The position numbers and the translations under genes were made by a program. Below are positions 28,601 to 30,412 of a stretch of 36,283 bases of DNA, in pieces. Origin of the DNA: a virus (taxonomy: Duplodnaviria; Heunggongvirae; Uroviricota; Caudoviricetes); the IMG/VR virus record IMGVR_UViG_2671180456_000012; one strand, 5' to 3'. A model generated the notes under the pieces. The model saw nothing but the letters and a program-made list of their open reading frames with translations, was not told where the DNA came from and made no database searches. Numbering within the stretch: the first letter of the stretch is position 1; each line of letters begins with the position of its first letter.

Positions 28601-30412
28601 GCTGCAAGAGATGAAGCGGCGGCTCTTATTGCTAAGGAAAGCGAGGCTCGTGTTGAAGGCGATGCTGCAAACGCTAAACAACTGGAAGTGTTGCAGTCAA
28701 CGGTAGAGGAAAGCTCCGCTGCCGTTGAAGAAATGAAAAAGACGGTTGCAGAGGTCGATCGTGCCAGTGCAGAACTGACTACGAACATTGAGGCGTTAGC
28801 CAAAACAAATATTGACCTGGCTCTTCGTCAAGATGAAGACCAGCACAAGCAGATGGTCAATAACGCGAAGATCGCAACAACACAGAAAACCTTTGCTGAT
28901 GATATGTCTGCAATGGCCACGAAGGTTGAGGAAATTCGCGTAGAAATTGGCGAAGACATTAAGGCCAGTATTCTGGAAGAGTCCACCGCTCGTGCCGATG
29001 GCGATGAAGCGTTAGCAAAGCGTGTCACTCAGCTGCAATCTAAGTTTGAAGGAGATATCAGCGCGGCGATTAGTACAGAGCAGGAGGCTCGTACATCTGC
29101 CGATGAAGCTCTGACGACACAGATCACTCAGCTTGAGTCGAAAGTAAGCAACGATATCGTCGCAGCTATTAAGGAAGAGCAAGAAGCCCGAGCAACGGAA
29201 GATTCGGCTCTGGCAAGCCAGATCACCCAACTTCAGGCAAAGGTTGATGATGATATTTCTGCTGCAATACGTAGTGAGCAGGAGGCCCGAGCAAGCGGGG
29301 ACTCTGCGTTAGCCAAACAAATAAACCAGCTTCAGTCAAAGGTTGACGGTGATATATCCGCTGCCATCACTCAGGAGCAGGAGGCCAGAGCAAGTGCTGA
29401 CCAGGCGCTCTCACGAGAAATTAACAGCCTGCGAGCACAAACCGGAACTGATATTGCCGCAGCGGTTGCTGTAGAGACAAAAGCAAGGACTGATGCCGAT
29501 AGTGCATTGTCTACCCAGATTACGTCTCTTACAGCAAAAGCTAATGATCTCGAGGCGTCTCTTGCCAGAGAAACAACGGCTCGTGCAGATGGTGATACCG
29601 CTTTAACAAAAGAGGTTTCAAGTTTAAAAGCACAGACAGCGAAAGATATTAGTGCGGCCGTTGCAGTTGAAACGCAGGCTCGAACTGATGCTGACTCGGC
29701 GTTGTCGTCTCAGATCACCAAGCTGACCTCTCAATACAAAGAGGATATTAAAGCGGCTGTAGCAACCGAAACGAAAACGCGTACAGAGCAAGATGCTGCA
29801 TTGGCGACTCAAATCACAAACTTAGAGTCTCAAACGGCAGCCAACATTTCCGCGGCGGTAACAACTGAAACGACAGCGAGAACGCAGGCAGATAATGCTC
29901 TGAGTGGGCGAATCGATACTCTGAAAGCAGAGGTGGATGGAAATACCGCGACAATTCAACAGCAGGCAACAGCTATTGCTGATACCAACAAAAAAGTATC
30001 AACCGCGTGGACGTTGAAAATGGAGACTTCAACGAGCGGAGGGCAGAAGTATGTTGCCGGTATTGCGCTTGGTATTGACACCACTGGGCTATCTCAGTTT
30101 TTGGTTCAGGCGGACAGGTTTGGTTTGGTCAACTCTGTTAACGGGAAGATCACAACGCCATTTGTTATCGAAAACAGTATCGCCTATATGAATGGAGCGT
30201 ATATCAAGGATGGCACAATCACCAATGCAAAAGTAGGCGATCTGCAATCTACCAATTTTGTTAGCGGTAGATCTGGATGGCGGTTCGGCAAAAATGGAAC
30301 GCTTGAGATCAACGGTAATAGCGGCGGCAATGGGCGATTGGTTATAAATGGTCAGCGGATTGACGTTTATGACGATAACAACGTCCTACGAGTAAGAATT
30401 GGCCGTCTGTGA
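25685..30412 (+). CDS. J: Central tail fibre / host specificity protein (lambda gpJ-like) with inserted coiled-coil repeat region
   Basis: N-terminal and central regions share conserved blocks with lambda J (..GFGG.E.R....Q.T.., ..AFGCTSRGQAHR.GLWL.., ..KYVAGI.L....G.LSQFLV.A.R..). ATG at 25685 with AAGGA SD; the track ORF starts at TTG 25679. Confidence 0.9.
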   Translation: MEQFKKKKLPLFIAGAGGKKSSKSSSRTPVEADDTVNSRAMAAILDLLGEGVIGGLVNGARSIFIDDLPIVNEDGSSNFSGITWDFRDGSQDQTPMSGFDFVETPKSVNIQLKKTHYVTVSIDNDEADRVRVIMKFPSLRSIDKKTGDTNGTTVEYKFQIANGDSTFVDVVAEGEKSVGIKLTAKKTGVYYRSYELKLPKPGRAYKVRVVRITDDNSSQYLYNDTWVDSIGEIVDTPMNYPNSVLVGLKVNSEQFGSTMPSRSYLVRGLKIRVPSNYNEASNTYDGVWDGTFKLLSSSNPAWILFDLLTNARYGLGQYVSESMIDLGQLYQIGRYCDEEVDDGFGGKEKRFAINTQITSRQDAYRLIQDIAGAFRGMVFWAGGMVNIMQDSPSDPVMMFTNSNVKDGLFTYKGSARKDRPSVALVTYNNKEDGYKQNIEYVEDQDAMRRYGERKTEVVAFGCTSRGQAHRVGLWLLYTARMESDVITFTAGLDASFLMPGETVLIQNKYRAGKRNSGRIVAFTKNSVTLDAPVSLAKGGCFIRILNQEGKIVERDVLETGENITKVTFSKALSSAETPVLNGVWTITEPDLEPMRVRIVNIAQGETPGSFDITAVENNPSKYEAIDNGATLIPQNTTVLDPTYSKPSNLQITEGTYLSSPGNLSVKLTATWEGKSPEYWISWRRSDENNVSNWQSARVTEEQYEIVNVAENGRYDFQLYAVSFNGKKTEIISAVYQVLGTMTPPDSPTSLTAVGDYRNVILNWVNPDSVDLDHINVYASQTNNLDTAKLIAESASTTFTHAGLGDSETWYYWVRASNKRGMLSPPNSNLGTEATTRDVLSFLTGKITSSELGQALLEDINSKASQEAVDELNEHINQSVESLEGAVNDVKEDIAELDKQFSDNLADFEIKFNERSDALENAQTELKGEVSATIDKVNEAFEKIDATDAAIVEIENTVSEHDKALANTVEAIKAARDEAAALIAKESEARVEGDAANAKQLEVLQSTVEESSAAVEEMKKTVAEVDRASAELTTNIEALAKTNIDLALRQDEDQHKQMVNNAKIATTQKTFADDMSAMATKVEEIRVEIGEDIKASILEESTARADGDEALAKRVTQLQSKFEGDISAAISTEQEARTSADEALTTQITQLESKVSNDIVAAIKEEQEARATEDSALASQITQLQAKVDDDISAAIRSEQEARASGDSALAKQINQLQSKVDGDISAAITQEQEARASADQALSREINSLRAQTGTDIAAAVAVETKARTDADSALSTQITSLTAKANDLEASLARETTARADGDTALTKEVSSLKAQTAKDISAAVAVETQARTDADSALSSQITKLTSQYKEDIKAAVATETKTRTEQDAALATQITNLESQTAANISAAVTTETTARTQADNALSGRIDTLKAEVDGNTATIQQQATAIADTNKKVSTAWTLKMETSTSGGQKYVAGIALGIDTTGLSQFLVQADRFGLVNSVNGKITTPFVIENSIAYMNGAYIKDGTITNAKVGDLQSTNFVSGRSGWRFGKNGTLEINGNSGGNGRLVINGQRIDVYDDNNVLRVRIGRL
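28970..29930 (+). repeat. Tandem ~111-bp (37-aa) coding repeats, about 9-10 copies, inside the J-like gene
   Basis: Recurring units of the type ..EQEARASGDSALAKQINQLQSKVDGDISAAI.. / ..VETQARTDADSALSSQITKLTS..; heptad-like spacing suggests coiled coil. Confidence 0.75.

Follow-up and report, generated by a model that had tools for sequence, protein, structure and literature searches.

The stretch of viral DNA analysed here, called the window below (36,283 nucleotides; IMG/VR record IMGVR_UViG_2671180456_000012), encodes a large tail protein that resembles lambda J over its N-terminal part, continues into a long helical insertion and stops shortly after its conserved tip domain. It raises the question of how a central fibre built in this way engages its host, and what its long shaft may do. 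We found that the gene is the central tail fibre of an SSU5-like E. coli phage-plasmid, and that it specifies a long-shafted member of the fibre type known from T1 and the F-pyocins, not a novel type.

The J gene and its lambda-like hub

The gene is one uninterrupted open reading frame, with possible starts at TTG 25679 and at ATG 25685 (the start annotated in Escherichia phage Cyrano) and a stop codon at 30410-30412, and it contains no N run (Table 1). Its DNA is 98.7% identical to Cyrano CYRAN_20, which is annotated as 'tail host specificity protein J' and lies 3' of genes L, K and I. The near-identical Cyrano locus has the tail-tip gene order M, L, K, I, J, and matching open reading frames are present 5' of J in the window.

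Table 1. Features of the J locus, in positions of the window
Feature	Residues	Coordinates	Strand	Basis or remark
J-like central fibre gene (tip attachment protein J homologue)	1575 aa	25685..30412	+	ORF list, translation
Hub and FNIII part	18-859	25736..28261	+	collinear with lambda J residues 2-835
Proximal helical shaft	860-1097	28262..28975	+	no proline, heptad-like periodicity 3.56
Conserved island in shaft, ...KTNIDLALRQDEDQHKQMVNNAKIATTQK...	1020-1099	28742..28981	+	20-aa window identity
Ten tandem 33-aa units (unit 6 has 32 aa)	1098-1427	28976..29965	+	self-identity at offset 33
Phage_Tail_Tip domain (PF09327, formerly DUF1983)	1423-1557	29951..30355	+	homologous to lambda J 845-972
Terminal module in place of the lambda receptor-binding domain, ends ...VYDDNNVLRVRIGRL	1513-1575	30221..30409	+	alignment to T1 gp33 and DEV gp56
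SSU5-type side-fibre gene, 5' part, N-terminal anchor domain MWYREGTITF...		30506..31472	+	context gene

Pfam identified FNIII-A_GpJ, Phage-tail_3, fn3 and Phage_Tail_Tip domains in the protein, the lambda-type hub domains being detected with E=1.5e-29 (PF24801) and E=7e-34 (PF13550). In a BLASTP comparison with lambda J (gpJ, PDB 8IYK / 8XCI), residues 18-859 aligned at 32% identity (E=3e-115), and the sequences in the PDB that matched over the hub were lambda J (8iyk), T1 gp33 (9l9p) and the F2-pyocin fibre (25vf). A first-pass annotation, made from the letters of the sequence, had called the gene a J-like central fibre, and this is borne out by the collinearity of the hub and by the domains. 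It had also stated that the N-terminal two-thirds track lambda J, which holds for the collinearity but not for the extent, as the collinear part makes up about 54% of the protein. Alignment with J proteins, proposed there as a check and run for lambda J and T1 gp33, gave a hub collinear with that of lambda and an ending as in T1.

Beyond the hub the lambda alignment jumps from residue 835 to residue 841, leaving only 5 lambda residues opposite a shaft of about 560 residues. A long helical repeat insertion without a counterpart in lambda J had been predicted and is confirmed by this alignment; its size had been given as about 1 kb, which is correct for the repeat array, whereas the whole insertion relative to lambda measures about 560 residues (860-1419, about 1.7 kb).

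The closest J orthologues are those of SSU5-like elements, namely Cyrano CYRAN_20, CMS-2020a, PhiR41_1 and gp20 of Salmonella phage SSU5. Over its full 4734 nt, the gene is 98.6-98.7% identical in DNA to those of Cyrano and CMS-2020a (strain SCU-107), which likewise have ten units and the same ending. The SSU5-like loci share the gene order L-K-I-J-fibre but differ in their downstream side-fibre genes. Neither the repeat array nor the shaft is annotated in the records of Cyrano, CMS-2020a, PhiR41_1 and SSU5.

A proline-free shaft with a 33-residue repeat

The 568 residues from 860 to 1427 contain no proline by composition analysis. Fourier analysis gave a periodicity of 3.56 in the proximal shaft and of 3.65 and 16.5 in the array, which forms the distal 330 residues. 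An AF2 model of residues 1090-1575 showed a helix over residues 1091-1383, with helices only in the array and no beta-prism, the run being that of a monomer and hence silent on trimer and beta-prism states. The absence of proline, the periodicities and the modelled helix together identify a long helical segment of the coiled-coil type between the FNIII domains and PF09327. Its first 238 residues, a coiled coil 5' of the array, had gone unmentioned in the first-pass annotation.

Identity of the array with itself was 47% at an offset of 33 residues and at most 20% at offsets not near multiples of 33, with the unit consensus.Et.ARa.aD.AL..qIt.L.s....DIsAA... A tandem protein repeat had been noted at this site, and the first unit begins at nucleotide 28976, six bases from the position 28970 given for it. 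About nine heptad-like repeats of 37 residues had been counted; the offset identities and the unit table give ten units with a period of 33 instead. The heptad 37-mer reading is rejected by this period and by the hendecad-like periodicity of the array (16.5 and 3.65), and the term heptad-like applies only to the shaft 5' of it.

Each unit contains the motif SxSxxMxxLxS twice, once forward and once in reverse. Across the whole shaft the motif matched 32 times, compared with 7.2 +/- 2.6 in shuffled sequences (maximum 17 in 1000). Four homologues with arrays that are only 62-69% identical supplied 33 units for comparison. Small residues occupied the six 'S' positions (5, 7, 12, 14, 22 and 30 of the unit) in every case, against 42% at the other non-core positions, and E2, R6 and D/N10 were invariant at i, i+4 and i+8. 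Charged 'M' positions with this spacing have been described for the motif (PMC12874032, section 10).

The proximal shaft is 59% identical to that of PhiR41_1 and 68% to that of SSU5, and is poorly conserved apart from one island (residues 1020-1099). Windows of 20 residues in the island have identities of 65-90% with PhiR41_1 and of 85-100% with SSU5; residues 1040-1059 reach 90-100% with both alike, in contrast to 5-65% for residues 880-979. The island is also the sole segment of the shaft that megablast found in Yersinia pestis and Enterobacter plasmids. We consider it a candidate docking site for side fibres, a proposal made wholly by comparison with the shaft of F-pyocins (PMC13455828, PMC12874032).

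The repeat number had been expected to vary, and among relatives it does: ten units are present here and in Cyrano, nine in PhiR41_1 and in the plasmid NZ_CP027358.1, five in SSU5 and one to eight in more distant homologues. NZ_CP027358.1 differs from the J gene of the window by an exact in-frame gap of 99 nt. PhiR41_1 and SSU5 carry indels in the proximal coil as well, the coil 5' of the array differing by 7 and 25 residues among these relatives. The expectation that the array would be hard to assemble did not hold, as Tandem Repeats Finder, run on the window, reported no tandem repeat there in the DNA, and the repeat is visible only in the protein. At the DNA level the units have a mean identity of 50% (maximum 70%), and the longest exact internal repeat is 12 nt. 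A slippage-prone or hypervariable tandem DNA repeat is rejected, since the units are not near-identical in DNA. In a plasmid collection searched with nucleotides 28300-30412, 163 records covered at least 80% of this 2113-nt 3' part, 111 records matched at 99% identity or more, and most of the matches sampled consisted of a single ungapped alignment of equal length.

The tip, its relatives and the neighbouring genes

The tip domain PF09327 is present over profile positions 1-138 of 139 (E=1.4e-41). BLASTP aligned residues 1420-1508 with lambda 841-931, and the AF2 model has beta strands from residue 1407 to the end, with pLDDT mostly >80. The YVAGI and LSQFLV blocks recognised in the first reading lie at about residues 1456-1474, and the early end was read correctly too: the protein stops 18 residues past the complete PF09327 (...RLVINGQRIDVYDDNNVLRVRIGRL). 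Lambda J has PF09327 as well but continues for 160 residues after it, into the LamB-binding domain Ig_GpJ_C (PF12421), which Pfam matched at lambda residues 1001-1132 (E=4.5e-74) and did not find in the J protein of the window. The long receptor-binding C-terminal domain of lambda is thus missing, as had been claimed. Without a lambda-type receptor-binding domain the host must be engaged differently.

The short C-terminus, neither oddity nor truncation, is a complete and widespread terminal module. It aligns with the end of T1 gp33, reaching residue 1168 of 1172 (...LRVQIGRL), with residues 367-427 of the 429 of DEV gp56 and with the SU10 tail-tip fibre. Truncation is rejected, as T1 gp33, DEV gp56, SSU5 and Cyrano share the ending. 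The last 270 residues matched T1 gp33 (9l9p) with E=3.6e-27 and the F2-pyocin central fibre (25vf) with E=4.2e-23, in alignments that span the repeats and PF09327 and, for T1, run on to the last residues. By tblastn the module was found in 1603 phage records, 493 of them with at least 80% of it covered. E. coli and Salmonella elements share 93-95% identity in the module, compared with 59-69% in the shaft. In the Citrobacter relative P0011, which has the same shaft, its last 35 residues or so are replaced by a lambda-type PF12421 domain. Foldseek, run with the AF2 model against the PDB, gave 7z4b as top match and returned only the SU10 and lambda J fibres, with low TM-scores, from a library that apparently predates the pyocin entries.

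Among characterised proteins, T1 gp33 (PDB 9L9P; Drexlerviridae, J-like) has a J-like hub, a helical region with 33-residue periodicity, PF09327 and the same terminal module, and likewise lacks PF12421. Its shaft, however, measures about 150 residues with about four units, as compared with 568 residues and ten units here, and its C-terminal 350 residues are unresolved in the structure (PMC11945409). The F-type pyocin fibres (F2, PDB 25vf; F7 CFP; PA0641) match over the whole protein with E=7e-154 and share the J-like hub, FNIII domains that lead into a trimeric coiled-coil shaft, a beta-prism tip with PF09327, the SxSxxMxxLxS motif and a side fibre with a related N-terminal anchor domain. They differ in having a shaft of about 165-180 residues, described as mainly heptad, in a locus that encodes the tip adhesins PyoF11/F12 or PA0642, not evident here, and in belonging to a tailocin without DNA. 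The short fibre gp56 of the Pseudomonas podophage DEV (PDB 9ZE4) and the SU10 tail-tip fibre (7Z4B) also end in this terminal beta module, preceded by a coiled coil, but belong to short-tailed phages and have no J-like hub. In DEV the module docks gp55 and the LptD-binding gp54 (PMC12892993); no such genes were seen at the locus analysed here.

J is followed, after a gap of 94 nt with no open reading frame in it, by the side-fibre gene, which is interrupted at an N run in this window. A large-database search with the side fibre's N-terminal domain found only 24 close relatives and improved its profile little, from E=0.0035 to 1e-4. Pyocin side fibres use their N-terminal domain to dock on the shaft (PMC13455828; preprint 10.64898/2026.02.24.707460), and the side fibre encoded here, whose N-terminal domain lies at 30506-30973, is a probable partner of the J shaft. 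T1 has two small genes directly 3' of J; tblastn searches of the window and the Cyrano locus with their products gave chance-level matches only, and a tip adhesin of the kind that pyocins, T1 or DEV have is not evident.

How the fibre may work

The account that we favour, and regard as probable overall, is that of a central fibre on the plan of T1 gp33 and the F-type pyocins, carried by an SSU5-like phage-plasmid, which delegates recognition and bears a switching array. Residues 1-859 would form the conical tail-tip hub and the FNIII domains, on the pattern of lambda J. Residues 860-1427 would form a long alpha-helical shaft, very probably a trimeric coiled coil, with an estimated length of about 85 nm if fully coiled. 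Residues from about 1407 to 1575 would make up a small beta tip, consisting of PF09327 and a terminal module of about 60 residues, with no built-in receptor-binding domain of the lambda type. Primary host recognition would be left to the side fibres encoded next door, and their conserved N-terminal anchor domain would attach to the conserved acidic RQDEDQ island of the shaft, much as the side fibres of pyocins do to their own shaft; the chances of docking on the shaft as such appear about even.

A change of fold in the array is slightly more doubtful. The coiled coil of the F7 pyocin converts into a beta-prism, and among 120 siphophage central fibres, 24 have been described as related (PMC12874032); the same 2026 preprint, whose main text does not mention 'SSU5', links SxSxxMxxLxS to this switch, demonstrated for the F7 pyocin only. 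Since all ten units fit the motif, the distal shaft would most likely be a metastable coiled coil, in which each 33-residue unit may correspond to one beta-hairpin. Upon host contact the distal shaft would collapse into a beta-prism, the fibre would shorten, the tail tip would open and the tape-measure protein would be released. Some points speak against the switch. The array has double the length of the segment that switches in the F7 pyocin (163 residues), it is hendecad-like where the pyocin shaft is mainly heptad according to one study (preprint 10.64898/2026.02.24.707460), and the small residues flanking the core could also mean tight packing in a static trimeric coil.

The shaft might instead be a permanently coiled trimeric rod, a spacer or ruler in which the number of units sets how far the tip and the side fibres reach through LPS or capsule, with no switch at all. 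Copy-number changes by whole units and the 7- and 25-residue changes in the coil are what a length-tuned rod would show, AF2 predicted helix only, and lambda and T5 function without such a switch (PMC12874032, discussion). SSU5, with five units, infects rough strains only, although a link between length and the thickness of the surface layer is speculative. We nevertheless hold a static rod to be unlikely: it leaves unexplained why the six small-residue positions, which would be exposed if they resemble the 'S' of the motif, are strictly kept while their exposed neighbours vary freely, as well as the periodicity of 16.5 residues, in step with two copies of the motif in each unit, and the homologous pyocin shaft has been observed in both states (PMC12874032).

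A second possibility, which we judge equally improbable, is that the terminal beta module itself (residues from about 1407 to 1575) binds a conserved receptor, such as the LPS inner core or an outer-membrane protein, so that no tip adhesin is needed. The empty gap between J and the fibre gene, the missing homologues of the small T1 proteins and the near-identity of the module in E. coli and Salmonella, set beside the divergence of the shaft, would all agree with it, and it is compatible with the favoured account if binding triggers the switch. However, the tips of all characterised relatives dock separate binders (gp54/gp55 in DEV, PMC12892993; PyoF11/F12 or PA0642 in pyocins), and a sequence so well conserved from one host to another would more typically belong to a structural adaptor than to a surface that binds receptors. 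The sole receptor attribution for SSU5 that we found, in the passage of PMC12312913 citing Kim 2014, assigns the LPS core to the fibre adhesin gp22 and not to J.

An assembly artefact, in which the repeat count was collapsed or expanded or the 3' end truncated, might be suspected from the N runs in the window, the probably chimeric join of the side-fibre gene to a lambdoid stf gene 1 kb downstream (31473-31493) and the many database copies of the J protein labelled 'partial', but is effectively refuted by the lack of N runs and of long exact repeats in J, by the length shared with Cyrano and CMS-2020a and the ungapped 3' part shared with most sampled complete plasmids, by a C-terminus that T1 and DEV conserve up to its final residues, and by the agreement with Cyrano in the 94-nt gap and in where the following gene starts.

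Returning to the switching fibre, one may tentatively go further and picture the array as a modular fold-switch 'spring' tunable by copy number, each unit supplying one beta-hairpin of a trimeric beta-prism, although we think this rather unlikely. If true, alleles with 5, 9 or 10 units (1-8 in distant homologues) would set the stroke length and the stored energy of tip opening, a rule of scaling with repeat number that the fold-switch preprint does not state (PMC12874032). How non-contractile phage tails are powered to open and to breach the outer membrane has yet to be solved, and the only answer proposed for the T1/F-pyocin fibre family is the switch of a coiled coil into a beta-prism, based on one pyocin. 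Relatives that differ from the present fibre by exactly one or five units (PhiR41_1 and SSU5, both cultivable) form a natural series for testing the switch and its scaling. For annotation, a J protein that lacks a receptor-binding domain is normal and complete as it stands, and the neighbouring fibre genes are where the host range of these widespread E. coli phage-plasmids should be looked for.

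The central fibre gene and its repeat array

The window carries one long open reading frame (ORF) for a J-like central fibre, with the repeat region in its 3' third. Over its whole length and without gaps, this J gene is 98.6-98.7% identical in DNA to those of Escherichia phage Cyrano ('tail host specificity protein J') and CMS-2020a; J of Salmonella phage SSU5 is a more distant relative. Given this identity and the Cyrano gene order (tail genes M, L, K, I, then J), the window is an SSU5-like phage-plasmid's tail module. The 3' part of the gene was present in more than 160 plasmid records, mainly from E. 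coli, and GenBank holds many deposits of the gene as J, 'phage tail protein' or 'DUF1983 domain-containing protein'.

Features of the J protein and of the surrounding window (aa numbered from the ATG)
Feature	Aa of J	Window (nt)	Remark
J ORF	1-1575	TTG 25679 or ATG 25685 to stop 30410-30412	+ strand; 1575 aa from ATG
Lambda-like hub	18-859		54% of the protein
FNIII-A_GpJ	102-236		Pfam
Phage-tail_3	358-521		Pfam
fn3	645-728		Pfam, sub-threshold
Proximal coil	860-1097		Pro-free helix, 238 aa
Indel segment	885-909	28337-28411	proximal coil
Conserved island	1020-1099		shaft
33-aa array	1098-1427	28976-29965	ten units
Phage_Tail_Tip	1423-1557		Pfam PF09327, formerly DUF1983
Side-fibre gene		starts 30506	stops at N run 31473-31493
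Exact duplication		31130-31472 = 32179-32521	343 nt, Ala/Ser-rich region
Lambda Stf-like gene		31540-34905	GC ~0.6
tfa		34905-35486	
Gene I homologue		25070-25507	ORF call cut short by N run 25496-25497 inside it
Further short N runs		301; 1133-1143; 25496-25497	

The hub aligned with lambda J 2-835 (32% identity, E=3e-115) and aa 1420-1508 with lambda J 841-931. The first-pass annotation had taken the N-terminal two-thirds as lambda-like, with an insertion of ~1 kb; the collinearity held over a shorter extent, and the insertion is larger, with ~560 aa (1.7 kb) standing where lambda J has five residues. The protein does contain a tandem repeat, beginning at the place given before, but its period is 33 aa instead of the claimed 37: self-comparison gave its main peak, with 47% identity, at a shift of 33 aa, followed by 66 and 99, with no signal at 37. 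Ten units, one of them of 32 aa, replace the approximately nine counted before. Hydrophobic periodicity in the array is 16.5 and 3.65 residues, hendecad-like, and the heptad-like character proposed earlier applies only to the proximal coil (periodicity 3.56), which lies upstream, outside the span first annotated. The AF2 model, of a monomer in one state only, placed a helix at aa 1091-1383, a low-confidence segment at 1375-1405 and, for everything from 1407 on, beta strands predicted with confidence, which fits a layout of helical shaft plus beta tip.

In PDB sequence searches, the F2-pyocin central fibre (25vf) matched with E=7e-154 overall and E=4e-23 over the last 270 aa, for which T1 gp33 (9l9p) gave E=3.6e-27, whereas lambda J matched in the hub only. 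Three 2026 studies (PMC12874032; PMC13455828; preprint 10.64898/2026.02.24.707460) describe F-type pyocins as built in just this way, with a J-like hub, FNIII, a trimeric coiled-coil shaft, on which side fibres are anchored by their N-terminal domains, and an adhesin-bearing beta-prism tip. T1 gp33, not resolved past residue 820 and predicted to form a 37-nm alpha/beta fibre (PMC11945409), shares the 33-aa periodicity, with about four units. The fibre type is already known from T1 and the F-pyocins, and window J very probably belongs to the trimeric central fibres with a long helical shaft.

Copy number and divergence of the shaft

DNA identity between units averages 50% and reaches 70% at most (units 3 and 4); no exact internal DNA repeat exceeds 12 nt, and no DNA tandem repeat was reported there by Tandem Repeats Finder. 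The units are old duplications. Because they have diverged so far, the array, once expected to be hard to assemble, is neither slippage-prone nor an assembly hazard.

The expected variability in repeat number was borne out. In plasmid NZ_CP027358.1, which is 98.9% identical, one whole unit of precisely 99 nt (29238-29336) is absent between units 3 and 4, the pair most alike; we take this allele to show that a single unit was recently lost or gained. PhiR41_1 is exactly 33 aa shorter in the array and 7 aa (one heptad) shorter in the proximal coil; for SSU5 these values are 164 aa (five units) and 25 aa. The proximal-coil indels fall in the least conserved stretch of J (5-40% identity in 20-aa windows). 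The shaft is the fastest-diverging part of the protein (59-69% identity to PhiR41_1/SSU5 vs 89-96% for the hub and 93-95% for the tip). A unit HMM found 1-8 units per homologue in a length-biased sample of 120, within which the ten units of window J are the highest count.

Terminal module, side fibres and receptor

The short, non-lambda end noted earlier was confirmed: the protein stops 18 aa past a full-length PF09327 match, and Pfam found no Ig_GpJ_C domain (PF12421; lambda J 1001-1132). C-terminal truncation was rejected because the ORF is free of N runs, Cyrano has the same 94-nt gap after J and the same beginning of the following gene, and J of SSU5, PhiR41_1 and CMS-2020a has identical terminal residues. 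By tblastn the last 171 aa matched 1603 phage records (493 across 80% or more of that length), among them Drexlerviridae and Vibrio, Burkholderia, Ralstonia and Pseudomonas phages. The Citrobacter relative P0011 has the same array (69% identity) and PF09327, followed by a lambda-type PF12421 from ~aa 1540; P0015 and P0020, which with P0011 make up the Citrobacter and metagenomic relatives, are built likewise, the swap point corresponding to ~aa 1540 of window J. These proteins indicate modular exchange of fibre tips: one shaft can bear either of two alternative modules, the short end or the one for receptor binding.

The next gene opens with the conserved SSU5-type side-fibre N-terminus (MWYREGTITF...), as in Cyrano, CMS-2020a and SSU5, and a profile of this domain matched the N-terminal domain by which the F2-pyocin side fibre docks on the shaft (E=1e-4). 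The otherwise divergent shaft holds one conserved island (...LALRQDEDQHKQMVNN...), with 65-90% identity to PhiR41_1 and 85-100% to SSU5 in 20-aa windows, which is the only shaft segment detected by megablast in Yersinia pestis and Enterobacter plasmids. We infer that this acidic island is a candidate docking site; that side fibres dock on the shaft at all is an even prospect.

No gene lies between J and the side-fibre gene, and homologues of the two small post-J genes of T1 were looked for and not found, so that the tip would either bind by itself or dock a protein encoded elsewhere. Phage DEV uses its homologous terminal module for docking gp55 and the LptD-binding gp54 (PMC12892993), and the passage of PMC12312913 citing Kim et al. 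2014 attributes recognition of the SSU5 receptor, the LPS core, to the fibre adhesin gp22, not to J. That the tip itself is the receptor-binding site is a separate question, compatible with the fold switch considered below, and seems doubtful. The fibre/adhesin genes of SSU5 are followed (16614-17721) by genes for two small hypothetical proteins and for a Cor-like protein of superinfection exclusion; in Cyrano, unlike SSU5, a holin follows directly at the corresponding place. Cor proteins are associated with FhuA-dependent phages, and the Cor-like protein hints at a second receptor for SSU5.

Beyond the N run that ends the side-fibre gene come a lom-stf intergenic terminator, stf and tfa, a stretch matching lambdoid prophages in the chromosomes of 81 E. 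coli genomes (95-97% identity). The two copies of the duplication precede N runs 31473-31493 and 32532-32550, respectively. This arrangement (31130-32550) was absent from all plasmid records, and the join is either a chimeric assembly across the shared repeat or a genuine recombinant. Many public side-fibre copies (P0121-P0128) are 'partial', 160-265 aa long and ending in the Ala/Ser-rich region, and such fragments form clusters with as many as 156 members; it appears to be this gene downstream of J, not J, at which short-read assemblies break. Some part of window 28000-36283 matched more than 5000 plasmid records, many conjugative, vs 291 with the J gene; candidate sources are stf/tfa or the final 800 nt.

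A possible fold switch of the array

Upon cell contact the 163-residue coiled coil of the F7 pyocin is reported to become a beta-prism, each strand of which bears the pattern SxSxxMxxLxS, with acidic 'M' residues paired to Arg four positions away (PMC12874032). Scanning the shaft (aa 860-1427) in both orientations gave 32 matches, vs 7.2 +/- 2.6 (maximum 17) in 1000 shuffles. Every 33-aa unit has one forward (ALxxQITxLxS) and one reverse motif (AAIxxExEARA), hence the 16.5-residue periodicity; two copies per unit imply one putative hairpin per unit. A comparison of 33 units was drawn from four homologues with array identities of only 62-69%. Small residues make up 100% at the six 'S' positions vs 42% elsewhere outside the core; E2 and R6 never vary, and positions 10, 13 and 20 are always D or N, L or I, and L or F, respectively. 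The E2-R6-D10 ladder matches the acidic-'M'/Arg pairing.

We tentatively favour a switch of the array that turns its coiled coil into a beta-prism, at slightly under even chances. The main rival, a shaft that is a static length-setting rod, accounts for the whole-unit indels but leaves the strict small-residue pattern unexplained, and we think it unlikely. We regard an assembly artefact as all but excluded. Among the complete plasmids sampled, most have an array as long as that of the window, aligned without gaps.

In the proposed fold switch, the trimeric central fibre would carry its side fibres on a long metastable helical shaft until host contact, via these fibres and/or the tip, triggered the 33-aa array to collapse into a beta-prism. 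Its twenty strands would measure ~10 nm as a prism vs ~49 nm as a coil, and the collapse would draw the tip to the membrane and open it. We found no description of the regular ten-unit 33-aa organisation, of its variation by exact whole units (10, 9 or 5) or of the conserved shaft island.
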